Below, in pieces: positions 367-33,770 of a stretch of 64,000 bases of DNA. How positions within the stretch are numbered: the first letter of the stretch is position 1; each line of letters opens with the position of its first letter. A program made the translations under genes and the position numbers. Source of the DNA: Candidatus Poribacteria bacterium (GTDB taxonomy: Bacteria > Poribacteria > WGA-4E > WGA-3G). Under the pieces are notes generated by a model. That model saw only the letters and a list, made by a program, of their open reading frames with translations. It was not told the origin of the DNA and made no database searches. The stretch lies in contig OY764016.1 in assembly GCA_963667805.1 (NCBI GenBank), positions 4,458,998-4,522,997 on the forward strand, given 5' to 3'.

Positions 367-1386
367 TTATTCCTTTTTCATTTTTGCCCATATTGTAGTA
401 AGCAAGTGCGGTTGTGGTGAGACTGGCAACGCATACGCTGGATCAAACCAATCCCCCCCAGCATTCGCTTGGCGACGAGATAAACCGACAATATGCGTCA
501 GTTGTGTCTGGATGCCGTCATTCACGTTAACTTTGAAGACTTGGAACCGACCCTTAATTTCCTGTGTATAGAGAACTTCATCACCATTTGGCGATAACGC
601 TGGATACTGGGCATAGGGACCTGCTTCCTTTATAAGTTGTTTGAGACCGGAGCCGTCTCGATTGACGGTGTAGATCGTCTGCTTTGCCTTCCAAGCGTTG
701 TGCAGATCCGCATCCAAGATGGGGGGTAGCGGATGCTTGTTCCCAGTAAAGGCAAGTCTGTCTCCCGCAGCAGACCAAGAAGGATCGTATTGCCAAATCA
801 GTGCTTTCTTGGGTAGCGGTTTTTCCTGCGCTCGTGTCTGGACGTTGATAAATGTCAGTTGAGACGCGAATGGTTCGTCTACAGAGTAGGCAATTTCAGT
901 GCCATCGGGCGACCATGCGGGATCCCAGCCATACGCAATATATTCATCCTCTTGTTCCCCAAGGCGCGCAATCTGGATATCAGCATTAATACCCACCTGC
1001 CTGTTCACATAAGCGATGTGTTTGCCATCGGGCGACCATGTTGGATGGCTTCTATAAATTCTCGTTTTTCTCTTGAAGACGCGTCGAACGTTTTTTCCAT
1101 CTGGGTCCATCAGGTAAAGGTCTCGCTCCCCCCCGCGATCGGAGATAAAAAGAATCTTTTCGCCTGTAGGTGACCAGACGGCTTGCAGATCATTTCCAGG
1201 ATGTTGTGTGAGTCTCATCTGTTCGCTGCCATCTGGGTTCATGGTGTATATTTCTCTGTTTCCGTCGCGTGCAGAGGTGAACAGGATTTTCGGCGTGTTG
1301 GGTGCTTTTGCGAAAACTGAATAAACATTTGTATTCAGGACCAACACCTTAAGTAGGAAAAAGACTAACAATCTCATCGTTCCCAT
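367..1386 (-). CDS. TolB-like WD40/PD40 beta-propeller periplasmic protein
   Basis: Signal peptide MRLLVFFLLKVLVLNTNVYSVFA. Repeated WSPDG/PD40-like blades (AVWSPTGEKILF, PTWSPDGKHIAY, PAWSPDGTEIAY, ALSPNGDEVLY). Tandem paralogue of the truncated upstream gene. Confidence 0.75.
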   Translation of the reverse strand: MGTMRLLVFFLLKVLVLNTNVYSVFAKAPNTPKILFTSARDGNREIYTMNPDGSEQMRLTQHPGNDLQAVWSPTGEKILFISDRGGERDLYLMDPDGKNVRRVFKRKTRIYRSHPTWSPDGKHIAYVNRQVGINADIQIARLGEQEDEYIAYGWDPAWSPDGTEIAYSVDEPFASQLTFINVQTRAQEKPLPKKALIWQYDPSWSAAGDRLAFTGNKHPLPPILDADLHNAWKAKQTIYTVNRDGSGLKQLIKEAGPYAQYPALSPNGDEVLYTQEIKGRFQVFKVNVNDGIQTQLTHIVGLSRRQANAGGDWFDPAYALPVSPQPHLLTTIWAKMKKE

Positions 1387-10590: not shown

Positions 10591-11190
10591 TTAAAGATAC
10601 ATGTTTATGACTTCATCAATGGTTATATCGGCATTATACTCTCTGAGACGTTTGATATTCGCAAAGTCGTGTTCAATCGGATTGTAGTCGGGTGAATAAG
10701 GCGGCAAAAACAATACCTCTGCCCCCGATGCTTCTATCAACTCACGGGTTCGACGCGTTTTGTGAATCTTGGCATTATCAAGAACAACGATGTCTGAGGC
10801 AGACAGCCGTGGACATAAATAGGCTTCAATCCAGGCATTGAAACACGCCGCATCGCAGCTTCCATCAAACAAACAGGGGGCCGTAAAAGCCGAACCGATA
10901 CGCGCAGCGACCAACGTTGTTGTTCGTGTCCTTGTGCCTGAGATGAGACCTAAAACACATTCACCTTTCGGAGCATACCCATGCCGTCTAAAACTCTCAG
11001 CACGAAAACCGCACTCATCTACATAAACTATCGTTTTCCCAGTGGCGTGTTTCTCGGTGAGTGTTTGACGATAGACGTGCCGTTTCTCGGCGCACCGCTC
11101 CTTATATCCGAGTGTTTTTTTTTCGCGTGATGCCGAGTTTCCGCAGTCCATATCTGATAGAGGACGCTGAAACACCGAAATGCGAGGCAC
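10591..11190 (-). CDS. IS630-family transposase, DDE catalytic part (orfB)
   Basis: IVYVDECGF, DIVVLDNAKIHK and LFLPPYSPDYNPIEHDFANIK are classic IS630/Tc1-mariner DDE motifs. Confidence 0.75.
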   Translation of the reverse strand: MPRISVFQRPLSDMDCGNSASREKKTLGYKERCAEKRHVYRQTLTEKHATGKTIVYVDECGFRAESFRRHGYAPKGECVLGLISGTRTRTTTLVAARIGSAFTAPCLFDGSCDAACFNAWIEAYLCPRLSASDIVVLDNAKIHKTRRTRELIEASGAEVLFLPPYSPDYNPIEHDFANIKRLREYNADITIDEVINMYL

Positions 11191-11422
11191 GCTCGTTTTG
11201 CGTCAAGTCCGGGAAATCAGCGACATGTTTCTTCAGTGCTGCCTCGTCAAGACACCTCATGTTTTTCGGACCCGGTTTTTGGGGCGCAAATGGGGTTTTA
11301 GCCGATAACCATCTATAAACCGTTGACCGATCCACGGAAAAACGACGCGATGCTTCGGATTTTTTACCACCCGTGTGAATAAAATCTAAGACGCGTTTAC
11401 GTAAATCTGTTGAATATGCCAT
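11102..11422 (-). CDS. IS630-family transposase, N-terminal HTH part (orfA)
   Basis: MAYSTDLRKRVLDFIHTGGKKSEASRRFSVDRSTVYRWL matches the IS630 N-terminal HTH. It overlaps orfB across an A9 run (T9 on + strand at 11115-11123). An A8 run would fuse the two ORFs into ...ITRKKTLGYKER.... Confidence 0.7.
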   Translation of the reverse strand: MAYSTDLRKRVLDFIHTGGKKSEASRRFSVDRSTVYRWLSAKTPFAPQKPGPKNMRCLDEAALKKHVADFPDLTQNERASHFGVSASSIRYGLRKLGITRKKNTRI

Positions 11423-11476: not shown

Positions 11477-12070
11477 CTATAAATTTCCTAAAACCGCAAG
11501 GCTCCCAAGATATGCAGATTTGTTTGGGACATCAACGCTATCTGCGGTTTGGACACAACGGCGTAACCATTCATCAGCCGCTACACCTTCAGGACGTTTC
11601 ATGAGGGGTGTGAATGGAAGCAAACCCGTGGGTTTCGTCTCAAGAATCGGCTCACCTTCCATGTCAATCAGCCGCAGGACTTGATATTCAATGAAGACCT
11701 GATGTCCAACTATATTTTGTTCGTAAACGCCACGATCCCGCCGTCCCGCATTCGGACGCAGATAAATGACACCTGAATACACCGGCAACCGATAGGTCTC
11801 CATCAACCGAACGATGTAGCCTGCCATGCGAAGTGACATCTCAGGATCATAACTGTCTGTCGTCTGAAATTCCAGATGGACCAGGACCTCTTCACCGTTG
11901 CGTTCCACTTTGATAACGATATCTGCTTGGTGCATTTCAACTGTAGGTTGTTCGGGAACGATCAATTCAACAAAAGTAACATCGCCTCCCTCAAAGTTTA
12001 GGCAGTGATTGACGAAGTCCATGGGGTGCGTTTGTGCTTGTGTTTTGCTAACAGTATCAAAAATCGCCAT
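11477..12070 (-). pseudogene. 5' fragment (PD-(D/E)XK nuclease core) of the IS-disrupted Rpn/YhgA-like gene
   Basis: VLVHLEFQTTDSYDPEMSLRMAGYIVRL...VIYLRPNAGRRDRG is collinear with the paralogue VLVHIEFQVSDSAPIDMVRRNVGYLGRC...VIYLRPNAGQRDPG. The stop codon TAG is created by the IS end. Confidence 0.6.
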
Positions 12071-12340
12071 TCTGTTCCCTTTCCCAGTTCAGCACATTAT
12101 ACCATACATTTGCAATGCGAAACAAATTTTTATTATATGGAGTGCCGTGAAGTCTGTCAAGAGAATTTTGCCCAGATTCCTGCCACATCACAGGAATGGA
12201 TTAGGAGAACGGTAGAATTTTGAGGCACCTGCAGGACCCGCAGCAGTCATAAATTTCGCGAACGGGTTATATACCTTAATATATAGAGCAGAAGAAACAA
12301 GGGGTGTTGAAGGTTGAAGCATCGTAAATATCGCGTTTTT

Positions 12341-12460
12341 TGCAAATATCTACAATTTTTTGCAATTTTACGAGAATTTCACGTTTTTTTATTAAATATA
12401 TGCAATTTTTCTGTAATTTTTGAATTTTTTGGCAAATATATGCAATTTTTTGTAATTTTA
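12341..12460. repeat. three approximately 28-bp AT-rich direct repeats (AAATATMTRCAATTTTTYTGYAATTTT), iteron/operator-like
   Basis: Copies lie at 12341-12368, 12393-12420 and 12433-12460. A TATAAT-like box follows at about 12488. They precede a small HTH gene. Confidence 0.5.
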
Positions 12461-12544
12461 ATTTGAAAAATGGCGTTATATAGTGTATAATTAACGTGTA
12501 ATGGGTTGAAACGCGAGATTTTTACACAATTACGCGAGGAATTC

Positions 12545-12757
12545 ATGAGACGCCGCTTGAACACAAAGACGATTTTGACTGCGTGTGAGATGTCTTTCAA
12601 CGGGAAAACAGACAATGAGATAAGTACTCTCTTAGAGACATCTGTCTCCAATGTGTCTCGTTGGCGAAAAAGTGAAGTTTGGAAAGAGTTTGAACAGGAA
12701 CTCATCTCCGAACACAAGCAGTCGCTTTTAGCAGCGCATCGCTCCACAACCCGATAG
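12545..12757 (+). CDS. small helix-turn-helix protein (transposase-OrfA/sigma-region-4-like HTH)
   Basis: DNEISTLLETSVSNVSRWRKSE is a typical HTH. 70 aa from the ATG at 12545 (the track starts at an upstream TTG). Confidence 0.4.
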   Translation: MRRRLNTKTILTACEMSFNGKTDNEISTLLETSVSNVSRWRKSEVWKEFEQELISEHKQSLLAAHRSTTR

Positions 12758-12857
12758 CACACCTTCAGGTGTGCGAAACATAGAAAAGGTATAAAAGGTT
12801 AGGTTCAGATAAGGAATGGATTTATTAATCCCTGGATCCGTTCTTGATTTTGAAAGA

Positions 12858-12947
12858 GTTAGCAGTTAGCCGTTAGCCGTTAGCAGCAACAAAAGAATTT
12901 ATCAACATTCTCTTTAACTGACAACCGACAACTGACAACTGACAACT
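12858..12947. repeat. two heptanucleotide microsatellites: (GTTAGCM)x4 and (TGACAAC)x4 (imperfect), in the 5' region of the LTD surface-protein gene
   Basis: agttagcagttagccgttagccgttagcagc occupies 12858-12888. ctgacaaccgacaactgacaactgacaact occupies 12918-12947. Confidence 0.6.
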
Positions 12948-12965
12948 CTAAAAGGTTTTAGGTTT

Positions 12966-15755
12966 ATGTTTACAATTTTATTCCATAAGAACAAGGAGAT
13001 AGAACGAATGTTGTCAAAGAAAATGGCATTTTCGTTAACAAGTCTAATAACAATACTTGCGCTCGCTTTCGTGGTGACTCCCGCGATGGCTGGAGAGTTT
13101 GGCGTGTCGCTTTACCAGGTCCAAGACGCGGATGGTACCGACGCTACTGATACGTTAATGGATGTCAGTCATGCCGATGGGTTACAAGTATCACCTCCTG
13201 CTACGGACACGGCTATCCGAGTTACTGTTAAGTTTGATAGGGCAGTTGTCTTGGCAGCTACAAGCGTGAGCATCGGTGGTTATGATAAAGACGGAGTTTT
13301 ATTGCCAGCTGTTGCCCTCGCTGCTACAACTCCTATCGCACCCACTACAGCTGCTAAGATGATCACGCTATCGATTACCCTTGGGGCGGGTGGAGATGCC
13401 GCTGCGATGGTCAGAAAAGTCACTCTCAAGATAGCAAAAGGCATTGGTTCTGCTGATCCGTTTAACGATGATACGAGTAAAGAGTTCAAGACGGATATCC
13501 ATTTGCTTCCGGCGGATCGAGCAGGCGGACCTGATGTATGGAAGATCGCGTTAGTCGGTGAACCTTTCTCACCCATCACGACTGCTACCTTCCAAACGCA
13601 CATCCTGCTGAGTGAAGAGCCGATGGGCGGCTTTAATAAAGATCATATTGAAGTCTCTGATGCAGATGTGGCATCCGTTGTTAAGTTAGTTTCACCTATG
13701 ACCGCACCAACCGGACTCATACAGCGTGATACTACTGCAGTGCCAGGAGAGATTACACCCACGGATCGTAGCACTGCGGGTCTTGCGACTTGGCGGGATG
13801 ATAATATCCATCTCTACCTCGTCACGTTCAACACCGTGGAAGGCGAAAAAGACGTCAAGATCAAGATCAAAAACTTCGCCGGGAATGAACGTCCAACAGG
13901 TGCTCTCACACAGCAAACCTATGTCCGTGCGGCTGACAGTCAGCTTACCGAAGGCAGAGATCTTCTGACGGTCAAGACCAAACGTGCCGTTACTACAATC
14001 AAAGCGGCGGGGGTTGCGGAAACCCACTTACCACACGGCGATGCGCCTGAGATTCCTGCGGATGGGTTCTACCTTCTCGTGAGAGATGCCGGGGATTCTG
14101 GGATCATCATCTCTGGTGTAGGTGATGAAAATGACTCGACAAAGCAAACACCTGCACAGTTGAAATATAACGCTCGGGCGGGTGGTTCGGTGAACCTTGA
14201 GCAGTTCCTCGCCAATGGTGGCACGATTGACCTGACGACGACGGAAACTGGTATAGCGATGGGCGATGTTGTCATCAGTGAGATTATGTGGGGTTCAAAC
14301 CTCGCGGTGGCAGATTCATCCCTTAGTCAATGGATAGAGATTCACAATACGACTGCGAGCAAGATCGTCGTCGCTGAGAAAGAGTGGACGCTGAAGTTCT
14401 ATGGTGCGAACGAAGTGCTTCCGACGACGGGTTACATTGACCGTGTCGGGACGCGTGATGAAGCGTCAGGAACGTTCTGGTCACTTGCGGGTAAAGGTCA
14501 AAGCGGTAGGACGGATCTCGATCCGACTGGAGTAGCCGCGGCATCGAGTTTTCCGATTATCTCCATGCAGCGCGCCCGTGCTGCGGATGGCACGTATGCC
14601 GATGGGACAATGGCAAGCAATTGGAGCCAGTCCGTAGGCCCCGCTGTGAACTTCGCAGTCGGTATTGAAGGCTCACGGATCGGCACACCCGGTGCGTCCC
14701 CCGTGACGCTGCCACAACCGACACCGCCTGCTGACCCACCCGTCGTCGTGACCATTCCGGCTGCGGTCCTCGGAGACATCCTGGTTACCGAAATCATGGT
14801 TGACACCGGCAACGGGAGACTCCCGCAGTGGATCGAACTCGCGAACTTCAGTGGCAAAGAAGTCACCCTCGACGGTTGGTCTGTTGAGATCACGAACCAC
14901 GCTGACGATGCCGATGTTGAGCGTAAAGTGAGCATTGACCTCACGGGGCAGACGCTCGATGTCCGTGAAGGTGCTAACGGCACCCGCGGCGAAGCCCTCC
15001 TCTTGGCGGCTTGGGGCGGTCGAAGCTCCGGCAACCTAAGTGATCGGGTTCTCAATGTCTCCAGCCAATTGAACAAAACGGGACGGTATACCCTCCTCAG
15101 TTCGATGGGTTTCATCATCGAACTCCTCCCACCGCTTGATTCGGGCATTGTGGTGGCGAGTGACGAGGCTGGCAACCTCCGTGCCGAGGAAGCATGGGAG
15201 ATCGAGATGGACGAAACCGGTCGGAGTTCACTGATCCGTAAGTTTGCTGCGGGTGTAGCAGCGGACGGAGAGGAAGCCGATGGATGGACTCTCGCCTCCA
15301 GCACATCGCTCCTCCAGGCTCCCGCAAGCTGGTATGGCAGTGATGAAGACGCAGGAACTCCTGGTGTTATCGGTGGTGGTCCGCTACCCGTCGAACTCTC
15401 ACACTTCCGTCCCGCACGCGATAAAGCCACCGGTGCAGTCGTGATTACCTGGGCAACCCAATCTGAGCTGAACAACGCTGGATTCTTTATCAAGCGCAGT
15501 CAGCAACGCAACGGTGAGTTCAAGGTCATCAACGCAACTATGATCGCCGGTGCTGGCACCACTTCGGAGAAGCAGTTCTATACCTACACGGATACAACTG
15601 CTCAACCTAACGTCGTATACTACTACCAAATTGAAGATGTTTCCCTCGATGGGAATCGTCAGACGCTGACCCGTGGTATCCGCCTGAAAGGGCATATCGG
15701 AGCCGCCGGCAAACTTACCTCCACGTGGGGTGAATTGAAGTCGTCCAATGAGTAG
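12966..15755 (+). CDS. large secreted protein with two lamin-tail (LTD) domains and a C-terminal KLTSTWGELKS tag
   Basis: Signal peptide MAFSLTSLITILALAFVVTPAMA (likely start at the ATG at 13008). The LTD signatures are GDVVISEIMWGS...QWIEIHN and GDILVTEIMVDTGNGRLPQWIELANFSGKEVTLDGWSVEITN. A C-terminal module PVELSHFRPARDKATGAVVITWATQSELNNAGFFIKRS precedes the terminal tag. Confidence 0.7.
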   Translation: MFTILFHKNKEIERMLSKKMAFSLTSLITILALAFVVTPAMAGEFGVSLYQVQDADGTDATDTLMDVSHADGLQVSPPATDTAIRVTVKFDRAVVLAATSVSIGGYDKDGVLLPAVALAATTPIAPTTAAKMITLSITLGAGGDAAAMVRKVTLKIAKGIGSADPFNDDTSKEFKTDIHLLPADRAGGPDVWKIALVGEPFSPITTATFQTHILLSEEPMGGFNKDHIEVSDADVASVVKLVSPMTAPTGLIQRDTTAVPGEITPTDRSTAGLATWRDDNIHLYLVTFNTVEGEKDVKIKIKNFAGNERPTGALTQQTYVRAADSQLTEGRDLLTVKTKRAVTTIKAAGVAETHLPHGDAPEIPADGFYLLVRDAGDSGIIISGVGDENDSTKQTPAQLKYNARAGGSVNLEQFLANGGTIDLTTTETGIAMGDVVISEIMWGSNLAVADSSLSQWIEIHNTTASKIVVAEKEWTLKFYGANEVLPTTGYIDRVGTRDEASGTFWSLAGKGQSGRTDLDPTGVAAASSFPIISMQRARAADGTYADGTMASNWSQSVGPAVNFAVGIEGSRIGTPGASPVTLPQPTPPADPPVVVTIPAAVLGDILVTEIMVDTGNGRLPQWIELANFSGKEVTLDGWSVEITNHADDADVERKVSIDLTGQTLDVREGANGTRGEALLLAAWGGRSSGNLSDRVLNVSSQLNKTGRYTLLSSMGFIIELLPPLDSGIVVASDEAGNLRAEEAWEIEMDETGRSSLIRKFAAGVAADGEEADGWTLASSTSLLQAPASWYGSDEDAGTPGVIGGGPLPVELSHFRPARDKATGAVVITWATQSELNNAGFFIKRSQQRNGEFKVINATMIAGAGTTSEKQFYTYTDTTAQPNVVYYYQIEDVSLDGNRQTLTRGIRLKGHIGAAGKLTSTWGELKSSNE

Positions 15756-15822
15756 TAGCAACAAAGAGGTTATTTCAGGGATAAAATTTGTTTGAACTAA
15801 CCTTAACCAAACGAAGCCGGGG

Positions 15823-15860
15823 TGTCTTTGATGCCTCGGCTTTCGTTTTTATGATTACTT
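15823..15860 (+). terminator. rho-independent terminator candidate after the LTD protein gene
   Basis: gaagccggggtgtctttgatgcctcggctttcgttttt forms a GC stem (AAGCCGRGG ... CCTCGGCTT) followed by a T run. Confidence 0.5.
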
Positions 15861-15981
15861 GGCGGATAGGGGTCTCAACGGGGTGCATTCTGTATCCCGT
15901 CCTATCCAACCTTTGAGACAGGTACATGCCAAGTTTGCCAAGTGAGACTTTAAAGGACAAACACGCAAAAGGAGAGAAACC

Positions 15982-18900
15982 TTGAAAAACCAACTTTTTA
16001 CACGAAACGTCTTGCTCGGCATGTTGATGACCCTCGTGCTGGCGTTCAGCGTGCAGGGAAACCTCGCAGACGCTCTGAGTTTCGGAGATACAAGAACAAA
16101 CGATTTACAAACTATACTCCGCGGAGCGGACTTTTCGGTTACATTTGCTGTAACTTTGGTGGATGAAGCCCGAAAGTCTGCCTACACCGCTTACACCAGC
16201 GAGTATACAGATACTAATGGTGTTGTTTATGTTTATGAGGATAAAGATAGTAGTGGTGATTATAATAGCGGTGACCGCAGGGCAACTAAATCCAGTGCTT
16301 TCCATTACAACAATGAAGCGGTTCGTATTAGTGTCAGTGGTGCTGGTGCAAAGATTACAAGTATAGGAAACAATACTATTACACCCGCGTCTTCCATCAC
16401 AGTGAAGGAAGGTGGTAGTGGCGCGGAAGCCCTAACAGCGGGGGATATTGTTGTGAATTGCAGTACTTCCAGTTACGGAGAAGTTACCATAACTGCAAGT
16501 GACGCAACGCCGAGTGAGGACTATCCTTCGGGAGTTCGCAGAGCACCAAACTTTGTTCTTACGACTTATGTCACACAGTACAACCAAGCTGTTGGTACTA
16601 CAAGAACCATCCGTCTCGTTGGCGTGACGAATGGAGTTGCAATCGGGTACGACGATCAAAGGGATCAACCCATTTACAATGGCGACTCCAGTCATTATCC
16701 GGTTACGTATACCGCAGCAGGCGGTGGAATGCTCCGCATACAAGAGGGTAGTCGTGAAGGGGCAGAAGCGGCCTCTCTTTCTACATCAAGTGCCGCTAAG
16801 GTTCTTCTCAACATGGAGGGCGCGACTAATACAGTGACTGCACAGCTTGGGGGTTCATTTGAGACATCTCAGGGTATCTATATCTTTGGAAACCCTCAAT
16901 TAAGCATAACGAGTGGGAACAATCAGAGCGGTAACCCTAATGCTCCACTTACGAATGCCTTACAAGTTACGTTACAGGATAATGCGTCAGCACCCGCAGG
17001 TGTTGTAGGGGTCCCAATCAAGTTTGATGTCACAGATAAAAGCCCGAGTGGTGGCATCTTGAGCCAAGCAGATGAAAGCACCGGAGTCACTATAGTTGAT
17101 GCTTCAAATGAAGTGGTAGATAGTCCGAGTCCTGGAAGCACAATGTACGTCCGAACTGGAACAGATGGTGTCGCTAATATTGACTTCCAACTCGGAACCA
17201 TTCCCGGGGAACAAACGGTTACCGTGAGTGCGCTGAATATAGCACGATTGACGAAGACGATTAAGGCTACAGCGACGGGGACAGCAGCTACAAGACAACT
17301 CTTTGCAGAAGACATTGACCGTCAAGGAACCACGAATATCTATACTTTAGTGGCTCGCGTTGAGAACGGTGGGACCGGAGATCCGGATGAGACAGTGACG
17401 TTCACAACTACTAAAGGGTTCTTGACGAGCGGCGGGACCACGGCTAAGACAGTAACAGCTACAACTAATGCGGCAGGTAAAGCGCGCGTCACTTACAACG
17501 CAGGCGATAGTTCGGGTACCTTAGAAGTCGTCGCGAGTATCTCTGTAGTAGCTCAGAATATAACTACTCAGCTGCAAGAGGTAACTTTTAACGTCAGAGG
17601 TGGAAGTTCCGGTGGTGACGATTCGGCTCCTTCGTCCCCCATAACAAGAGGCAGTCTGAATATTTCCGTTTCAGGCACAGGGAGCACGCGCAATATTACG
17701 GTAGACGCACAGAATGCAGATGGCGATGGCGCACACGGCATCTCTGTCCTCCTGAACGTCACCAATGGGGCAACGCTTTCGCGAACAAGCGGCGGAACTC
17801 CGCTCACCAGCACGCTCACGCTCCCAGCCACTGCGGGGGATTATGTCCTTACCGCGACAACGACTGCAGACTTCACTGGCGATACAGAGACGATTACTGT
17901 AACCTTACCCGGCAACCTTGGACTCGCGCTCATTGGGGACCAAGTGAACGGCTCCCAAACCATTCAAGTAACCGCCCGAAACGCAGCAGGCACGCTTGAA
18001 ACAACCCCTGTGCTGGTATCACTCACGGGAGCTGGGCTCTCCAGAACAGTTACTGTTACAGGTTCCCAGAATGTTCCGATCGTGTTACCGACTGCATCGG
18101 GAACATTGACTGCCAGTGCCACGGGATATAATGAAGGGTCGGTTACATTACCGGCGCGCTCGACAACAACAACGACGACGACCACCACAACGCCAACCAT
18201 ACCAACAGGACCTGCAGGCGGGGTTCCCGATAGCATTGTGATTGACGGGTCACGTACCCTTGACGGCACATTGGCTGAAGCGTCCCGGCTCCGTGTGAGG
18301 GTTCTTGATGCCAACGATAACGGTGTTTCAGGTGTAGGCGTGACGTTCCGGGTTCTGTCCCCTGGACGCGGCACTTTTGCAGGTGCTCGCGGTTCTGGAC
18401 GTGCGATCCGACTCGATACAGATCAAAACGGCTATGCAACGGTGAACTTCACTCCCACAACGGAGGGCGATGTCATCGTTGAGGCAAAAGCCGCGAAGGT
18501 TACAGCGGGTGTCACGTTCATCCTGGATGTCGGTGAATCCGCCACAACAACGACCCCCGACACAACGACTCCAGACACAACAACTCCTGATACAACGACC
18601 CCCGCGCCAGCGGATGTGACGCTAAAAGTCGGTGCCGCGAACCGTCCCGTGATGTATTGGATCACAGGGGGAGCCTTGTATCGTCAGGCGACCGGAGACG
18701 CGACGCAGATCACAGCGAGTGCGAAGGATGTCGTCGTGGATACAGCTGGCGGCAAACTTTACTGGATAGAGCAGACCAGCGAGCGAACGGGTGCGATCCA
18801 TAGTGCAAACCTTGACGGCTCAAACGCCAAAGTCGTAAAGACGCTGACGAGTGCGCCGATGGGATTGGCACTTGACACCGCCAATAAGAAGCTCTACCTC

Positions 18901-20049
18901 ACCAACGGCTGGGGCAAAATCCAGCGGATCAACGTAGATGGTACACGGTTTGAAACCAACTTCATCACGGGTTTGACGGGTCCGATGGATATTGCGGTCT
19001 CTTCGGGTCGCGTCTATTGGACAGACACCGGTGGAAGCATTCATTTTGTGAACCTCAGCGATCCCAAGGACATTCGGACGATTGCGTCAGATTTGGGTGC
19101 GCTGGGTGGTATTGCCGCCGATGCCAAGAACGTCTACTGGACAGAGACGACGGGTCAGAGAAGTGGCAGGATCCGAGCCGCGAATCTCAACGGTTCCGGT
19201 GTCAGGGATATGTATACCATAACAGCTACGGTGCACGGACTCGCAATCGATCCCGCAACGAACCGACCGTATTGGACGAATGGCTGGGGCAAAGTCCAGC
19301 GCGGACTCAGCAACGGCAAGATCCAAGATGTCGCCACTGGACTCAGCACACCGACGGCACTGGCGATCGGCGGTGCGAACGACGCGACCGATGCAACACC
19401 CACAAAGTCCTCTACCCCGAAAACTGCCGCCAACAAGTATGATGTCAATGGCGACGGTTCCGTGGATAGTAAGGATGTGGATACACTCCTCCTCGCCGTC
19501 TTAGCCGAGCTCACGGCTGCGAAGTATGATGTCAACGGCGACGGGACAGTGGATGTCAAGGATGTCAGGGATGTCAACAAGAATCTTGACAACGGCGCAG
19601 CAGGCGCACCGACGCTCCTCGGTATGAAGTTCAGTGTGCTTGAAGTCGGCCGACTCCAAGAACAGATTGATCTGTTAATCGCAACCAACGACCGGTCACC
19701 CGCTGCGATGCGGACGTTGGTGTATCTCCAGCAGCTCATCGTCATGGCGCGTCCAGAGCAGACACAGTTGCTTGCGAACTATCCGAATCCGTTCAACCCA
19801 GAGACGTGGATTCCGTATGCGTTAGCAACCGACACGGACGTGCGACTCACGATCTACAACGCTCAGGGTGTTGTCGTCCGGACGTTGCAGCTCGGGCAGC
19901 AATCTGCTGGCTACTACACGGATCGCGAGCGTGCGGCGTATTGGGACGGTCGGAATGCCCTCGGTGAACAAGTAGCGAGCGGAATTTATTTCTACCAGTT
20001 AGAAACCGACGACCTGTCGTCCCTGCGCAAGATGGTAATTTTGAAGTAG
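15982..20049 (+). CDS. giant multidomain cell-surface protein (Ig-like repeats, Thr/Pro-Thr linkers, YWTD six-bladed beta-propeller, dockerin-like repeats, T9SS-type C-terminal sorting domain)
   Basis: Signal peptide MKNQLFTRNVLLGMLMTLVLAFSVQG. The linkers are a poly-Thr run and TTTPDTTTPDTTTPDTTTPAP. YWTD blades are KLYWIEQT, RVYWTDTG, NVYWTETT and RPYWTNGWG. Dockerin-like pairs are KYDVNGDGSVDSKDVD and KYDVNGDGTVDVKDVRDVN. The C-terminus LANYPNPFNPETWIPYAL...LTIYNAQGVVVRTL...SGIYFYQL matches the Por_Secre_tail/T9SS type A consensus. Confidence 0.75.
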   Translation: MKNQLFTRNVLLGMLMTLVLAFSVQGNLADALSFGDTRTNDLQTILRGADFSVTFAVTLVDEARKSAYTAYTSEYTDTNGVVYVYEDKDSSGDYNSGDRRATKSSAFHYNNEAVRISVSGAGAKITSIGNNTITPASSITVKEGGSGAEALTAGDIVVNCSTSSYGEVTITASDATPSEDYPSGVRRAPNFVLTTYVTQYNQAVGTTRTIRLVGVTNGVAIGYDDQRDQPIYNGDSSHYPVTYTAAGGGMLRIQEGSREGAEAASLSTSSAAKVLLNMEGATNTVTAQLGGSFETSQGIYIFGNPQLSITSGNNQSGNPNAPLTNALQVTLQDNASAPAGVVGVPIKFDVTDKSPSGGILSQADESTGVTIVDASNEVVDSPSPGSTMYVRTGTDGVANIDFQLGTIPGEQTVTVSALNIARLTKTIKATATGTAATRQLFAEDIDRQGTTNIYTLVARVENGGTGDPDETVTFTTTKGFLTSGGTTAKTVTATTNAAGKARVTYNAGDSSGTLEVVASISVVAQNITTQLQEVTFNVRGGSSGGDDSAPSSPITRGSLNISVSGTGSTRNITVDAQNADGDGAHGISVLLNVTNGATLSRTSGGTPLTSTLTLPATAGDYVLTATTTADFTGDTETITVTLPGNLGLALIGDQVNGSQTIQVTARNAAGTLETTPVLVSLTGAGLSRTVTVTGSQNVPIVLPTASGTLTASATGYNEGSVTLPARSTTTTTTTTTTPTIPTGPAGGVPDSIVIDGSRTLDGTLAEASRLRVRVLDANDNGVSGVGVTFRVLSPGRGTFAGARGSGRAIRLDTDQNGYATVNFTPTTEGDVIVEAKAAKVTAGVTFILDVGESATTTTPDTTTPDTTTPDTTTPAPADVTLKVGAANRPVMYWITGGALYRQATGDATQITASAKDVVVDTAGGKLYWIEQTSERTGAIHSANLDGSNAKVVKTLTSAPMGLALDTANKKLYLTNGWGKIQRINVDGTRFETNFITGLTGPMDIAVSSGRVYWTDTGGSIHFVNLSDPKDIRTIASDLGALGGIAADAKNVYWTETTGQRSGRIRAANLNGSGVRDMYTITATVHGLAIDPATNRPYWTNGWGKVQRGLSNGKIQDVATGLSTPTALAIGGANDATDATPTKSSTPKTAANKYDVNGDGSVDSKDVDTLLLAVLAELTAAKYDVNGDGTVDVKDVRDVNKNLDNGAAGAPTLLGMKFSVLEVGRLQEQIDLLIATNDRSPAAMRTLVYLQQLIVMARPEQTQLLANYPNPFNPETWIPYALATDTDVRLTIYNAQGVVVRTLQLGQQSAGYYTDRERAAYWDGRNALGEQVASGIYFYQLETDDLSSLRKMVILK

Positions 20050-28770: not shown

Positions 28771-29445
28771 ATGAGAAAGCTGAATATCCAATGGGTTTAC
28801 GCGTGCATTTGCTTGTGCCTGATGCTGATTGGGCACACCGCACAGGCGATTCGTTATGAGTTTGATAGTGACAAAGAGATTGCGGATTGGGAATTGGGAC
28901 CGCAGGCAACCGCGGAGGTGAAAGACGGTATGCTTGAGCTTACCGTTGCCGGTGGACAGAATTCAGGTATCTACTTTGGGGAAGAAAACTGGACGGATTA
29001 CCGAATGGAAGTCAAGGCACGAAAAATTAATGGACCCTATTTCCATCTGTTCGTTCGGACGCAGGAACCCGCTGTAGATTTCTATTTCATGGAAATCAGT
29101 TACAACTCGCATACAACTTCGGTTTTCATGTTTAGCGGTGGAGCCGCGAATGAGATTACCGGTGGTCCGCGCCCACAACGTCCCGATTCAAAGGATACAA
29201 AAGGCGGCGATGCGTATACCATCGTCTTTGAAGTAGAAGGGCTAACCCTCAGGACCTACATTGATGGAAAACTGATGGTTGAAACCGAGGATAAAACCTA
29301 CGATAAAGGGCGTCCCGGTTTAGGTGGCAGGGATTCAACCGTTGCGTATGAATATGTTGAGATTAATGGTGAGGGCGTCCCGCCAACGGCAGTTGAACCT
29401 GCGGACAAATTAGCTACGTTGTGGGGTGAATTAAAAAGTAAATAA
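28771..29445 (+). CDS. secreted DUF1080/LamG-like jelly-roll domain protein with C-terminal KLATLWGELKSK tag
   Basis: Signal peptide MRKLNIQWVYACICLCLMLIGHTAQA. DGMLELT..GGQNSGIYFGEENWTDYRMEVKARK fits the DUF1080 (3-keto-disaccharide-hydrolase-like) pattern. Confidence 0.5.
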   Translation: MRKLNIQWVYACICLCLMLIGHTAQAIRYEFDSDKEIADWELGPQATAEVKDGMLELTVAGGQNSGIYFGEENWTDYRMEVKARKINGPYFHLFVRTQEPAVDFYFMEISYNSHTTSVFMFSGGAANEITGGPRPQRPDSKDTKGGDAYTIVFEVEGLTLRTYIDGKLMVETEDKTYDKGRPGLGGRDSTVAYEYVEINGEGVPPTAVEPADKLATLWGELKSK

Positions 29446-29493: not shown

Positions 29494-30342
29494 GTGAAAA
29501 GACTGGCTATTCTTTTTCTCACGGTTTTAATTTCTACGCAGGTTGAAGCCAATTACAATTTTGCGCTTCACACCGATTCACACCCTTGGGCGCGTGAAGA
29601 CCCAAAAGGGGCTCAAGAGGAAATTGATGCCTTGATTAAGATTATTGATAACAAGGTAAACCTGACGGCTTTTGATCCCAAGGATATTAACGGATTAGGA
29701 GAGTGGGTCAAGGCACACACAGCAGGGGGTGGGAATACCCTGATTCTGACCGGTATCACGCCTTCAACGATTTATCCGATCAATAACGGAAAACCTGATG
29801 GCTCGCCGCTTGAAGAGTTCCTTGATGCTGGCAACACGATTTTCAATACGGGTGAATACACCTTTTACACATCGGAAGGCCCCGATGAAACGAACGGACA
29901 AGCTGCACTACCCAATGTCATTGACGTTCCAAAAGCGTTCGTGTGGATGAATAGAGGTCCAGACGCTTGGGCAGCCAATCCCGTTGAAATGACCCCGACA
30001 CAGGAAGGTAAAGACCTTATACCGAGCCTGAAAAAGTATAATACGTCTTATCCGTTCCATCTTGATGATTACGACAGAAGCCCCTGGGAGTTAGAGATCG
30101 CGCTTGCTGAGAATGATGATGCAGATCCGCGGGTTGACCCGGCTGTGCTATATAACAAAGACACCGGTGGCCGCCTCGGGATCTTCGTCCAGACCTATGT
30201 GGGGGATGTGCCGCATCCGGGTGTCTCATGGGGCAATATTATGGGTGAATTCATCGTTAACTATTACCTACCAGAGGTTTTATCGGTTGAACCGATCGAT
30301 AAATTAACGACAACTTGGGGAAAACTGAAATCCTCAAAATAG
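29494..30342 (+). CDS. secreted hypothetical protein with C-terminal KLTTTWGKLKSSK tag
   Basis: Signal peptide MKRLAILFLTVLISTQVEA. No recognisable catalytic domain. Confidence 0.5.
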   Translation: MKRLAILFLTVLISTQVEANYNFALHTDSHPWAREDPKGAQEEIDALIKIIDNKVNLTAFDPKDINGLGEWVKAHTAGGGNTLILTGITPSTIYPINNGKPDGSPLEEFLDAGNTIFNTGEYTFYTSEGPDETNGQAALPNVIDVPKAFVWMNRGPDAWAANPVEMTPTQEGKDLIPSLKKYNTSYPFHLDDYDRSPWELEIALAENDDADPRVDPAVLYNKDTGGRLGIFVQTYVGDVPHPGVSWGNIMGEFIVNYYLPEVLSVEPIDKLTTTWGKLKSSK

Positions 30343-30422
30343 CCATTAGATAATTGGAGGAAAAGTGTGAGGGTGGCACTACAGATGCGCATGTCTGTGT
30401 GCCGCTTTCACACGCAATAAGG

Positions 30423-31193
30423 ATGAAAAAATTAACATATCTTTTAGCGGTTGTGGCGTTCCTAATGAGTTGTGTACTCGCGCATGCAGTCGATCCAGAT
30501 AAGGATTTACTTATCTATCTACCTTTTGATGAAGGTCAAGGTAACAAAGCGGAAGATGTTGGGCCGAATGGATTCGTGGGTGATATAAAGAACGCAAAAT
30601 GGGTAGAGGGTGTCTCAGGTCAGGCACTCCAATTTAAGGGGGGGAGTGTCAACTTCGACCCACTCAAAATTGATCAACCCAAGGAAATGACGATCGAATT
30701 CTGGTTTAAACCGGACGAGAAAATTGACAGTGGTGCCCGAATTGATCTGCTCTATCGTTTGCAAGGTGGTGGACGACCTCATGTTACGTTCAACCGTGGT
30801 GGCATTTTATTCGGGTACTACTTTGCGACGCAAGGTGTGGAATTACCGATACACACGACTTATGATGCGTTTGAATCGGAATGGTATTACTTCGTTGGGA
30901 CACAGAGCAAACAGACGGGATGGATGTATATTAACGGGGAGCTTGATGCTGAGACGGATGCCGGTGGTGATGCCCGCATGGATTTCGGTACCCAAGGGAT
31001 GTGCATCGCAGCGAGTCAGGGCAACGCTAACTTCTTCAACGGCATGATTGACGAATTTAAGATGTGGAGTGTCGCCTTCACTGCTGATGATGTTAAAGAT
31101 AGTATGGAAAAAACCCTTGCTGTGCAAGCGGAGGGTAAGTTGACCACGACGTGGGGTAAAATTAAGTCTGGTTCTGATGGAATCAGGTTTTAA
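30423..31193 (+). CDS. secreted concanavalin-A-like lectin/LamG_3 domain protein with C-terminal KLTTTWGKIKSGSDGIRF tag
   Basis: Start at the ATG at 30423 (MKKLTYLLAVVAFLMSCVLAHA, AAGGA SD) rather than the track start. GQALQFKGGSVNFDPL...TIEFWFKP...WYYFVGTQ...MYINGEL...IDEFKMWSVAFTADDV matches the LamG_3 pattern. Confidence 0.55.
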   Translation: MKKLTYLLAVVAFLMSCVLAHAVDPDKDLLIYLPFDEGQGNKAEDVGPNGFVGDIKNAKWVEGVSGQALQFKGGSVNFDPLKIDQPKEMTIEFWFKPDEKIDSGARIDLLYRLQGGGRPHVTFNRGGILFGYYFATQGVELPIHTTYDAFESEWYYFVGTQSKQTGWMYINGELDAETDAGGDARMDFGTQGMCIAASQGNANFFNGMIDEFKMWSVAFTADDVKDSMEKTLAVQAEGKLTTTWGKIKSGSDGIRF

Positions 31194-31211: not shown

Positions 31212-33770
31212 CTACCGAATCACTGAAATATGGAGCGGACGGGTTGCTGAGCGACCCTCCGCATCCACGCACGTTAGCACATGTTTTCCCCTGGCAGGCG
31301 TAAGCCAGTATTGCTCTCCCGCATTTCCTTGAAAAATTAACTCACCATCCAAAAACCAGAACAGTTCCTGCGTCCGACTGGAAGCCGAGGCGGTCAACCG
31401 AATCTTTTGGTTTTCCAGTGGCACCCCCTCCCGAATGTAATAGGTAGTGTCTTCTGCTGGGGATAAAATAATCGGGACGTTCCCTGCAATTGTGCCGGTA
31501 CACAAGGGATTATGCGCCGGTAGGACAGACACAGCAAAACCATTCTCTGCCAACCACGTCGCCGCATCGGCGGGCCACTCCTCAAATATTTTTTTATAGG
31601 GTCCAGTTGACCCATCATTATTTCCCCAACAATGGGAACAGAGACTGTATCCTGTCGATTCGTCAACATAGATAGGTTTATGAATCGCGCAAACCGCTAC
31701 AGACGAAACACCGGGTATATACACGTCCTCCTTATGGGTGGGACAGTGCGGCGAAACCGGTGCGCCACTCAGGGTACACACTTGTCGTGTTTTCAATTGT
31801 TCTGGTTTGGTAAACCAGTGGTGTGTGTCTTGTCCTGTCAAGGCAGTGAAGAGCGCGAATAGGATCGGAGTTGCTGCATCTGTGCCGCTCAGCATGGGTG
31901 TCCCCTTTCCATCGAAATTACCGAGCCATACACCGATTGTGAAAGTCGGGGAGTACCCGATGCACCATGCATCTCGGTGTCCATAAGACGTCCCAGTCTT
32001 CCACGCAATCTTTGGTAGGTTCATTGTCCTTTCAAACGCTTCTGGATTTTTAACCGTGTTGGTAGGGAGTTGTGAGTTTGTTAACATCTCGGTTATGATG
32101 AAGCTGGTCTCTTGTCGGAGTAAACGTTTGGAATAGTTTTCAGTTTTCGGTTGATGAGGCTTTGTCAATTGATAAGGTCCAAATTCTCCCATATTTGCCA
32201 GTCCAGCGTAAAGTGTTGTCAATTCGAGTAGATTCACTTCGCATCCGCCGAGAACCATAGAGAGTCCGTATTTCTGGGCAGGCGCGAGTGTAGAGATACC
32301 GGCTTTTTTGAGGAAGGCGTGTAGTGTCCTATTTTTCAAGCGTGCATTAAGATTAACGGCGGGGACATTGAGAGAACGTGCGAGGGCTTGACGGGCAGTG
32401 ACATAACCGTTATATTTCCCATCATAGTTCACCGGTGTATAGTCAGCATAGGTAACGGGGACATCGAATAACAGTGTTTCGGGTGTAATCAAGCCCTCTT
32501 CCATTGCCAGGGCATAGACGAAGGGTTTGAGTGCAGAACCCGGAGAACGCGGGGCGAGCGTCCCATTTATTTGTCCTAATGCCTTCCGGTCGAAAAAGTC
32601 GTGGGAACCTACCATTGCTAAGATATGGCGGTTTTGGGTATCCATGACGATGATTGCGCCTGTGCTGGTGCTATGAGACCCGCGCAAACTCGGCTTACGC
32701 GCTGCGTCCACCAGATATTCGTTAAGGATGCGTGTCGCGATATCCTGAACCTTGGCGTCTATTGTCGTGTGTATCCTGCCATTTGTTATCCGTGAGTGGG
32801 AGGGGTTTCTAACCCCGGATTTCTTCCGGTTTTCTTTAATCAATAGGCGTGAGAGGTGTGGTGCTTTAAATGGAAGTGAATAGCGTTTATGCGGAATCGG
32901 TTCTTGGACTGCCTCCTGCCACTGCTGTTCGGAAATTTGTCGGCGTGCCAGGAGACGATTCAGGACTTTTTCGCGTGCCTTTCGGGCGTTTTCTGGGAAC
33001 CTGTCAGGGCGTAAACGTTCTGGAGCGTTCGGAATGGCGGCGAGAAGTGCGGCTTCCCCAAGACTAAGCGTATGCTGGGGTTTGTTGAAGTAGAACCGCG
33101 AGGCTGCCGCTGTTCCGACTATATTCCCACCATACGGGAGCATGTTAAAATAAAACGTTAAAATCTCTGATTTGGAATAAGCGTGTTCAAGTTGAAAGGC
33201 ACGGAACATCTCAATGAATTTGTTCGGAATGTTACGCGCCTTAGGTTCCATCAATCGGGCGAGTTGCATGGTGATGGTTGAACCCCCGCGGACAACTTCA
33301 CCCGCTTTCAAATTGTCATAGATGGCTGTTGCAATCGATACAGGATTGATACCGTAATGATAGTAGAACCACCTATCTTCTGATGTGAGTATTGCTTGGT
33401 GGAGTAAGGGGGAATAGGTATCGGGTGTTCCGTTTGTCTCGTGGTGAGAATCTTGGGTTAAGGAGGGGACTGATTTATTGAAGATCTGTTGTGATTGATG
33501 ACTAAATCGCCACATGCCATCGTCGGCTAAAAATGCTCGAAGCCACTCGCCGTTTCTGTCCAACACAATCTGAGATACAGGGGGATGGAGACGTGCTTTG
33601 GGTAGCGGGAAACACCAGTTTGCGAGCATAAAGAGGATGACAATCAACAAGAAAGATAGCATTACAGTCATCAGTCCTCCGAAGAGGGGGTGTCGGTTAT
33701 AAGAGGGGCTTGTTAGACGAAGACCTCTTAACTGAAAATTGAAAACTGAAAACTGAAAACTATTCATCAT
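31212..33770 (-). CDS. pbpC: penicillin-binding protein 1C (PbpC-type bifunctional transglycosylase/transpeptidase)
   Basis: GT51 motifs are EDRWFYYHYGINP, GGSTITMQLARL and KSEILTFYFNMLPYGGNIVG. A transpeptidase domain and the PBP1C C-terminal domain follow. Its start overlaps the upstream A2M gene stop by 4 nt (ATGA). Confidence 0.8.
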   Translation of the reverse strand: MMNSFQFSVFNFQLRGLRLTSPSYNRHPLFGGLMTVMLSFLLIVILFMLANWCFPLPKARLHPPVSQIVLDRNGEWLRAFLADDGMWRFSHQSQQIFNKSVPSLTQDSHHETNGTPDTYSPLLHQAILTSEDRWFYYHYGINPVSIATAIYDNLKAGEVVRGGSTITMQLARLMEPKARNIPNKFIEMFRAFQLEHAYSKSEILTFYFNMLPYGGNIVGTAAASRFYFNKPQHTLSLGEAALLAAIPNAPERLRPDRFPENARKAREKVLNRLLARRQISEQQWQEAVQEPIPHKRYSLPFKAPHLSRLLIKENRKKSGVRNPSHSRITNGRIHTTIDAKVQDIATRILNEYLVDAARKPSLRGSHSTSTGAIIVMDTQNRHILAMVGSHDFFDRKALGQINGTLAPRSPGSALKPFVYALAMEEGLITPETLLFDVPVTYADYTPVNYDGKYNGYVTARQALARSLNVPAVNLNARLKNRTLHAFLKKAGISTLAPAQKYGLSMVLGGCEVNLLELTTLYAGLANMGEFGPYQLTKPHQPKTENYSKRLLRQETSFIITEMLTNSQLPTNTVKNPEAFERTMNLPKIAWKTGTSYGHRDAWCIGYSPTFTIGVWLGNFDGKGTPMLSGTDAATPILFALFTALTGQDTHHWFTKPEQLKTRQVCTLSGAPVSPHCPTHKEDVYIPGVSSVAVCAIHKPIYVDESTGYSLCSHCWGNNDGSTGPYKKIFEEWPADAATWLAENGFAVSVLPAHNPLCTGTIAGNVPIILSPAEDTTYYIREGVPLENQKIRLTASASSRTQELFWFLDGELIFQGNAGEQYWLTPARGKHVLTCVDAEGRSATRPLHISVIR
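32795..32828. repeat. REP family-B copy embedded in frame inside pbpC (encodes KSGVRNPSH)
   Basis: gtgggaggggtttctaaccccggatttcttcc lies within the open reading frame, in the TG-TP linker region. Confidence 0.6.

Follow-up and report, generated by a model that had tools for sequence, protein, structure and literature searches.

A short peptide that closes several exported proteins was analysed in a 64,000-nucleotide stretch of Candidatus Poribacteria DNA (contig OY764016.1, positions 4,458,998 to 4,522,997 of the forward strand; hereafter the window, with all coordinates counted from its first letter). The peptide, referred to below as the tag, forms the end of a 929-residue protein of the lamin tail domain (LTD) family encoded at 12966..15755, and an earlier note made from the DNA letters alone had connected it with a trio of genes at 28.7–31.2 kb. 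We interpret the tag as a modular, phylum-specific C-terminal sorting or anchoring signal of Poribacteria that is read after Sec export, and we assign this reading a probability of about 0.6. It is preferred because five lines of evidence fit it: the positional rule that the tag obeys, the breadth of exported cargo that carries it, its conservation above that of the passenger proteins, the unstructured character of the linker and peptide, and its interchange with the C-terminal domain of the type IX secretion system (T9SS).

Tagged proteins of the window

The open reading frame (ORF) of the LTD-family gene ends in ...YYYQIEDVSLDGNRQTLTRGIRLKGHIGAAGKLTSTWGELKSSNE*, and the span 15690..15755, where the tail had been flagged, was confirmed to consist of GHIGAAGKLTSTWGELKSSNE (21 codons) followed by the stop codon. 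A six-frame scan of the window with the pattern [KR][LIVM][ATS][ST][TLSA]WG.[LIVM]K identified only four places, each 2–8 residues before a stop, which are this tail and the tails of the trio. The connection between the two loci drawn in the earlier note therefore stands, and it has to be extended by a carrier that the note had missed, a gene on the opposite strand with a diverged tag, found in a looser scan. The window contains five tagged genes in total.

15690..15752, plus strand: C-terminal tag GHIGAAGKLTSTWGELKSSNE of the LTD-family protein, with the core I911 to K925 at 15696..15740 and the stop codon at 15753..15755
28771..29445, plus strand: tagged 224-residue protein resembling 3-keto-disaccharide hydrolases/DUF1080 (Pfam), tag at 29392..29442, ending ...VEPADKLATLWGELKSK*
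29494..30342, plus strand: tagged 282-residue protein whose named family members are all from Poribacteria, tag at 30286..30339, ending ...VEPIDKLTTTWGKLKSSK*
30354..31193, plus strand: tagged LamG_3 protein (Pfam) with a probable start at 30423, tag at 31122..31190, ending ...VQAEGKLTTTWGKIKSGSDGIRF*
367..1386, minus strand: tagged gene for a PD40/TolB-like β-propeller, diverged tag VSPQPHLLTTIWAKMKKE at 370..423

The trio proteins contain only about 17 residues beyond the catalytic or binding domain. Two orthologue fragments of the PD40 gene (P0175 and P0184) end in LLTTVWGKLKTRD and LLTTIWGKLKRE, and the orthologue tails read LLTTVWGKLK. No Pfam match was obtained for the 282-residue protein. 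Tagged proteins of the DUF4960 family and an ORF on another locus (L150, 5474-6250) look similar to it in sequence.

Sequence and predicted structure of the tag

The core of the tag is about 15 residues long and, numbered from its tryptophan, reads [A/S]-V(-10)-[E/D/S]-[P/A]-x-[G/D]-K(-5)-L-[T/A]-T-T-W(0)-[G/A]-x-[L/I/V/M]-K(+4). It can be summarized as V-E-P-x-G-K-L-T-T-T-W-G-x-L-K, and 0–5 variable polar residues separate it from the stop codon. An identical core was obtained when the sequence logo was counted separately for the LTD family, for the other poribacterial carriers, and for metagenome tails that do not match the search pattern. The tryptophan and both lysines are near invariant (85–100%), the T-T pair is conserved at 64–78%, and the final conserved residue is lysine or arginine in approximately 100% of the tags. 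The aliphatic residue at position -10 is conserved at 86–96%, and it is a valine in most carriers and a valine or isoleucine in the LTD family, where the upstream part of the tag reads H-[V/I]-G-A-A-G. The segment K-L-T-T-T-W-G-K-L-K contains no hydrophobic stretch.

A flexible linker connects the tag to the preceding folded domain, whichever domain that is. In an AlphaFold2 (AF2) model of the C-terminal 150 residues of the LTD-family protein, a β-sandwich is predicted with block-mean values of the predicted local distance difference test (pLDDT) of 69–91, and the last 30 residues fall below 60. The model of the 282-residue protein (mean pLDDT 82) weakly resembles a ThuA-like α/β fold (Foldseek match 4jqs, E 6.8e-4, TM 0.42), and its last 17 residues, 266–282, are below 50. 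In the models of these two unrelated carriers, the tag is placed outside the folded domain. A helix of low confidence (pLDDT below 60) is drawn over the tag in both, at H142–148 of the LTD fragment and at H269–280 of the 282-residue protein.

Position and conservation of the tag

The positional rule was established in pooled Poribacteria DNA comprising the window and 70 loci (1.34 Mb, with 8186 stop-to-stop segments of at least 60 residues and 1.02 million residues). The strict motif [KR]xxxxWGx[LIVM]K was found 102 times at 12 residues or fewer from a stop codon and 0 times elsewhere, and one of the 102 matches is a spurious 69-residue ORF. When a 30-nucleotide degenerate DNA pattern for K-[LF]-[TA]-T-T-W-G-K-[LIM]-K was used to scan the JGI metagenomes, matches were present on at least 120 contigs. 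All 121 of the matches listed are in frame and lie 0–11 codons before a stop; four of them end exactly in ...WGKIK*, and 24 have one residue after it.

The earlier note had proposed that the tail should be regarded as a chance resemblance if orthologues did not conserve it. On this check the tag was not refuted: of the 98 intact relatives of the LTD-family protein, defined here by the module that precedes the tag and is described below, 95 retain it. Among the 99 module-bearing ORFs, the strict tag is present in 91 and close variants (WS, WA) in four, three have another ending, and one is a frameshifted piece. In the family of the 282-residue protein, the tag is retained at 28–50% identity, including a member that is 28% identical to the window protein, a level at which the rest of the protein has diverged.

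On the nucleotide level, the tag codons vary synonymously (glycine as GGT, GGA or GGC; leucine as TTG, CTC or CTG; lysine as AAA or AAG; threonine also), while the tryptophan is invariant, and 85 distinct DNA versions of the tag were counted. Because the codons vary freely at synonymous sites, selection acts on the tag peptide and not on a DNA element, and a DNA element was ruled out as a candidate on this ground.

Breadth of the tagged proteins

The carriers belong to at least 11 Pfam families, namely LTD, LamG_3, 3keto-disac_hyd/DUF1080, PD40, Kelch, CBM9_1, F5_F8_type_C, DUF4960, the right-handed Beta_helix/NosD, the subtilase Peptidase_S8 and CBM96, and several further carriers remain unassigned by Pfam. 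In the metagenome loci alone, 33 sequence clusters of tag carriers were counted, one of which is a false positive. That the tag is an independent element and not a shared enzymatic C terminus, as the earlier note had argued, is borne out by the lack of relation between these families and by the tag itself, which lies 0–11 residues from the stop, is never internal, and is outside the predicted fold.

Signal-peptide-like N termini were detected in 85–89% of the tag carriers versus 17–24% of other genes. This call was made with a crude hydrophobic-window heuristic and not with SignalP, and most of the misses among carriers are wrong start calls. Most carriers are single-domain proteins of a carbohydrate-binding type, 215–310 residues long and array-encoded. 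The tagged genes are often grouped in arrays of 2–5, and the trio is one such array; the order of a DUF423-like gene, the trio and a gene for an 852-residue protein is retained in two metagenome contigs (L136 and L172). In 0.63 Mb of metagenome contigs fetched by the tag pattern, a sample that is enriched by design, 167 of 581 genes are tagged.

All carriers with an organism name belong to Candidatus Poribacteria, including proteins identical to those encoded on lake and low-G+C contigs. The tag is also present on contigs from lake, groundwater and sediment metagenomes, and those for which identical proteins have been named are Poribacteria. A profile search with 45-residue C termini against a database of 5.8 billion proteins returned only fragments shorter than 80 residues, and it confirmed both the consensus and the naming as Poribacteria. 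A peptide that is strictly C-terminal, present on many unrelated families, attached to exported proteins and restricted, among the named carriers, to one lineage corresponds to the operational definition of a sorting signal.

The LTD-family protein and the module preceding its tag

The LTD-family protein consists of a variable head and a conserved C-terminal part, and its features are as follows.

12966..15755, plus strand: LTD-family exported protein, 929 residues as listed (ORF list, Pfam LTD)
13008..13091, plus strand: Sec-type signal peptide MLSKKMAFSLTSLITILALAFVVTPAMA|GEF, from a reading of the sequence (crude heuristic, not SignalP)
13092..14165, plus strand: hypervariable N-terminal region without family match (alignment of 76 paralogues and orthologues)
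14256..14408, plus strand: first LTD-like region, residues 431-481, sub-threshold (PF00932, E 5.2e-4, 20.8 bits against a cut-off of 34.3)
14763..14972, plus strand: second LTD domain, clear (PF00932, E 2.8e-12, 47.4 bits for the whole protein against a cut-off of 34.3)
15381..15689, plus strand: VELSHF...YYYQIEDVSLDG module, a predicted FN3/Ig-like β-sandwich spacer (AF2 model, Foldseek)
15813..15853, plus strand: intrinsic-terminator-like hairpin with a T run, the sole terminator-like site in 12000..16100

The true start of the protein is probably M15 (13008), as in orthologues beginning MLSKKIAFSL.... Of the two LTD domains that the earlier note had described, one was recovered above the Pfam gathering threshold and establishes the membership of the protein in PF00932; its best stretch in the whole-protein scan is residues 601–644, which corresponds to stretch 12–81 of a sub-fragment scanned separately. 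The other copy remains below the threshold. The description of the protein as adhesin-type was not supported, as the N-terminal 400 residues have no Pfam match even at E=10. The terminator hairpin is situated 60 nucleotides past the stop codon of the gene, separate from the tag.

An alignment of 76 family members of 850–1200 residues from Poribacteria loci shows how unevenly the protein is conserved. The mean pairwise identity of the head is 19–32% over the region 13092..14165 (19–26% for residues 50–400), and the C-terminal end is strongly conserved, with 74–79% identity for the module and 66–79% for the module and tag together (15381..15752). A hypervariable head with a conserved C-terminal module is what would be expected if the protein were displayed at the surface and anchored by its conserved end.

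The protein belongs to a large multi-copy family. Its last 139 residues match 277 database proteins at 67–96% identity, and these are mostly fragments that retain the tail. A scan of one genome per GTDB species confirmed 498 relatives of the module; the best 80 of these, on 70 loci, are all from metagenome-assembled genomes of Candidatus Poribacteria, some of which contain at least 10 copies. When a module-plus-tag profile was compared with 1.84 billion representatives, at least 634 clusters (50% identity) were matched at E ≤ 1e-30 and 25,897 representative clusters at E ≤ 1e-3. The 150 listed among the 634 are all strong matches, and nearly all reach within a few residues of the C terminus of the protein. 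When the contig collection was queried for exact matches to the window proteins, no record was returned.

The VELSHF...YYYQIEDVSLDGNRQ module is present as the earlier note described it. It is predicted by AF2 to be a β-sandwich of six strands. A Foldseek search with the model gave generic FN3, CBM and Ig matches only, none at E ≤ 1e-3, and the module sequence has no Pfam or NCBIfam match (E = 10) and no match in the Protein Data Bank by profile search. The module also occurs in tandem, with four copies in a protein of 670 residues (P0379) and nine in one of 895 residues (P0371), both of which look non-poribacterial; in the former, the four copies are followed by a classical T9SS type A C-terminal domain. 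Module and tag do co-occur, a point that the note had suggested checking, yet they are separate elements. The module is missing from the trio, forms an internal tandem repeat elsewhere, and precedes a T9SS domain in other lineages, so that it was ruled out as a component of the signal. We read it as a putative spacer or stalk of a kind often located ahead of a C-terminal sorting element.

A short subfamily of LTD-plus-module proteins (the 416–419-residue ORFs of L044, L045 and L048, and P0105) ends in ...RLKGHIGGSRRFEEAPFWWKDFNW and has no tag. These proteins may be frameshifted derivatives, or they may have a different type of C-terminal ending.

The T9SS-type neighbour and the interchange of endings

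The gene directly downstream of the LTD-family gene encodes a large multi-domain protein.

15982..20049, plus strand: 1355-residue protein with a Big_1 domain, a YncE-like propeller, a dockerin-like EF-hand pair and a T9SS type A C-terminal domain at 19780..20040

The C-terminal domain of this neighbour matches TIGR04183 with 28.6 bits (cut-off 23), together with FlgD_ig. Its family has 22 members of about 1360 residues in 21 of the LTD-centred loci (L001–L070). The LTD-tag gene and its neighbour look like a duplicated two-gene cassette.

Two chimeric proteins connect the endings of the two genes. The ORF at 4729-6702 of L027 and its orthologue at 10503-12458 of L028 have N-terminal regions of about 500 residues that are homologous to the LTD family, with 40% identity to residues 15–241 of the window protein. 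In place of the LTD-LTD-module-tag arrangement, both have a terminal T9SS domain with 78% identity to the one in the 1355-residue protein. Homologous passengers therefore carry either ending, which suggests that C-terminal cassettes may have been exchanged between the two adjoining gene families. Kamke et al. 2014 (PMC3909097) noted many TIGR04183 proteins in Poribacteria and reported that the structural genes for Por secretion were not found in the single-cell genomes.

Genomic surroundings

Upstream of the LTD-family gene, an 83-residue ORF at 12506..12757 (plus strand) has the look of a helix-turn-helix protein when inspected by eye, and it is conserved at 45–90% identity in 24 sequences, those of the window and 23 loci. 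A sigma-70-like promoter with an 11/12 match is located before it at 12463..12491. A segment of about 600 bp (approximately 12203..12806) that contains both the small ORF and the promoter is inverted relative to the LTD-family gene in four paralogous loci of one genome, OZ243935 (L009, L021, L023 and L026), and about 21 bp (12786..12806) are common to both junction alignments. Either an invertible switch or an ancient inversion followed by duplication could account for this arrangement.

The LTD cassette is directly preceded by a DDE_3 transposase gene at 10591..11422 (minus strand), whose N-terminal part may be encoded by a separate ORF immediately upstream of it, and by a 197-residue ORF at 11477..12070 (minus strand) that has the look of an Rpn-type nuclease and no Pfam hit. 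ORFs of mobile elements, TnpB-like and related, are found repeatedly in the LTD loci. The trio is flanked at 31212..39466 (minus strand) by ORFs of 852 and 1899 residues that resemble, from a reading of the sequence only, a PBP1C-type transglycosylase and an α2-macroglobulin.

Proposed function of the tag

If the tag is a sorting or anchoring signal, the N-terminal signal peptide would direct each carrier through Sec across the inner membrane. In the periplasm, a Poribacteria-specific partner would then recognize the exposed C-terminal peptide and would transport the protein through the outer membrane, deposit it on that membrane, or attach it to the envelope; the chain might also be cleaved close to the tag. 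For the LTD family, the conserved stalk of LTD, LTD, FN3-like module and tag would be placed beside the cell, with the hypervariable N-terminal head directed outward. By analogy, the tag would take the place held by the T9SS domain, PEP-CTERM or LPXTG signals in other bacteria.

Several observations weigh against this interpretation. No candidate processing enzyme, receptor or translocon was found, and no non-cargo family recurs beside the tagged genes in 190 loci, where the recurrent neighbours are sulfatases, Gfo/Idh/MocA-type oxidoreductases (assigned by reading the sequence only), transposases and the T9SS-domain protein. The swap of endings shows an equivalent position and not an equivalent destination; Poribacteria are uncultivated, and the destination of the carriers is inferred. 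The variable 0–5 residues past the last lysine speak against a simple pocket for the free C terminus. Among Sec-dependent sorting signals of diderm bacteria, we know of no precedent for a linear signal so short without a hydrophobic anchor, and the known systems consequently provide no mechanistic template.

A more far-reaching proposal is that the tag marks the substrates of an undescribed export or surface-attachment pathway, apparently confined to Poribacteria, that reads a linear peptide of about 15 residues without a transmembrane anchor or a folded domain. This is put forward tentatively, and we rate it below even odds. It deserves notice in view of the report that the core genes of the classical T9SS were not found in single-cell genomes of Poribacteria (PMC3909097). 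If true, such a pathway would explain how these symbionts present a large repertoire of binding proteins, lectin-like, LTD and others, to the sponge matrix. Poribacteria are dominant among sponge symbionts and uncultivated, and much interest centres on the proteins that they expose to the host.

Alternative explanations

The tag could instead be a docking peptide, a short non-covalent ligand or donor strand that plugs lectin-like or enzymatic modules onto a common scaffold or receptor. Such an arrangement would be comparable with dockerin-cohesin assembly or pilus donor-strand complementation and not with a translocation or sortase-type machine; we judge it to be unlikely. The small, single-domain, array-encoded carriers of a carbohydrate-binding type agree with it, and the conservation of specific residues (K, T-T, W, G, K) instead of mere physico-chemical character fits protein-protein recognition. 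The conserved large neighbour of the LTD-tag gene, which combines a T9SS-type domain with a dockerin-like EF-hand pair, also points in this direction, but it accompanies the LTD family only and not the other carriers. Furthermore, no protein with repeated receptor-like domains was identified, and docking modules need not be positioned 0–5 residues from the C terminus, yet the tag is never internal. Dockerins likewise equip many small catalytic or binding modules with one common terminal tag, but they are calcium-binding domains of about 60–70 residues that need not be terminal, and no cohesin-like partner was found.

An amphipathic helix that holds periplasmic proteins at the membrane, as the C-terminal helices of PBP5/6 or MinD do, is an improbable explanation. 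It would consist of three turns that present L(-4), W(0) and L/I(+3) on the same face, flanked by lysines, and in our own reading of the logo a helical wheel places these three residues in a sector of about 60 degrees bordered by the lysines. The PBP5/6 and MinD anchors are likewise short and lack a transmembrane helix, and AF2 places a helix over the tag in both models. Both helices, however, have pLDDT values below 60, the threonine-rich segment and the conserved glycine are poor helix formers, and just three or four hydrophobic residues are available. Membrane anchors of this type conserve amphipathic character and not exact residues, whereas the tag has a tryptophan and two lysines that are 85–100% identical and a T-T pair that is 64–78% identical; nor are they common to dozens of families in one phylum.

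Slightly more doubtful again is an envelope tether or protease handle, in which the near-terminal lysine is cross-linked to peptidoglycan after trimming, as in Braun's lipoprotein, or the tag provides a site for a periplasmic C-terminal processing protease. The nearly universal Lys or Arg as final conserved residue would suit this mechanism, as would the variable, dispensable-looking residues past it and the metagenome matches that stop at ...WGKIK* (four of the 121 listed) or one residue later (24). Most tags have 2–4 residues more, so that an extra trimming step would be needed, and a mechanism based on the terminal lysine leaves 10 conserved upstream residues unexplained. In the loci examined, no gene for an L,D-transpeptidase or S41 peptidase is linked to the tagged genes.

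Finally, the tag might have no function as a peptide and might reflect coincidence, translation of a repeated DNA element (a terminator, a REP-like sequence or a recombination site) or the terminal structural element of a common domain. This is hardly credible and already contradicted: the tag is short and the 3' ends of the multi-copy LTD family could be homogenised by gene conversion, but the position counts (102 against 0, and 121 of 121 among the matches listed), the 85 DNA versions with free synonymous variation, the unrelated folds of the carriers with the tag outside them, and the separate terminator hairpin all stand against it.

Comparison with known sorting signals

The tag, read here as a sorting or anchoring signal, has a close counterpart in position in the T9SS type A C-terminal domain (TIGR04183/PF18962), which is likewise found at the extreme C terminus of Sec-exported proteins of many unrelated families. 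That domain is also modular, follows Ig/FN3-like spacers, and occurs in the same genomes, including the adjacent gene 15982..20049. The T9SS signal, however, is a folded Ig-like domain of about 70–100 residues, whereas the tag is linear, about 15 residues long and predicted to be unstructured. No folded β-sandwich is present at the extreme C terminus of the tagged proteins, as the tag has pLDDT values below 60 and lies outside the fold in the two AF2 models. Four tagged proteins of the window gave no TIGR04183 or PF18962 match, and their tails alone gave none at E=10; the neighbour does match, which shows that the test works here.

In its distribution, the tag resembles the PEP-CTERM/exosortase, LPXTG/sortase and GlyGly-CTERM/rhombosortase systems, in which a single genome likewise encodes dozens of unrelated exported proteins with a short, lineage-restricted signal that contains a small motif. 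There is also a loose similarity between 'PEP' and the 'VEP' with which many tags begin. The tripartite signals of this group, including GlyGly-, MYXO-, IPTL- and VPXXXP-CTERM as well as LPXTG, combine a motif with a hydrophobic transmembrane helix and a cluster of basic residues; the tag differs from them in having no hydrophobic run, and its V-E-P-x-G is followed by K-L-T-T-T-W-G-x-L-K and 0–5 polar residues. When five tails and the module-plus-tail were compared with Pfam and NCBIfam (release 20.0, which includes curated models of C-terminal sorting signals), no family was matched at E ≤ 10, with the limit that the HMMER filters drop most matches above about E 0.1. Full-text literature searches with the tag strings, and with Poribacteria combined with relevant terms, returned nothing on the tag. 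It is best filed as a lineage-specific C-terminal sorting signal with an architecture unlike that of every described class.

NCBI names identical or near-identical carriers 'LamG domain-containing', 'DUF4960 domain-containing' or 'hypothetical', an annotation gap in which the naming of tagged proteins covers the passenger domain only. A simple regular expression now selects the probable envelope or surface cargo of Poribacteria, and the tag offers a handle for finding its partner, by peptide pull-down or co-occurrence profiling. The PEP-CTERM, LPXTG and GlyGly-CTERM-type signals were found through the same kind of genomic pattern as the tag, and the earlier C-terminal signals (LPXTG, PEP-CTERM and the T9SS domain) each led to a new envelope machine and to a listing of the surface proteome from sequence.

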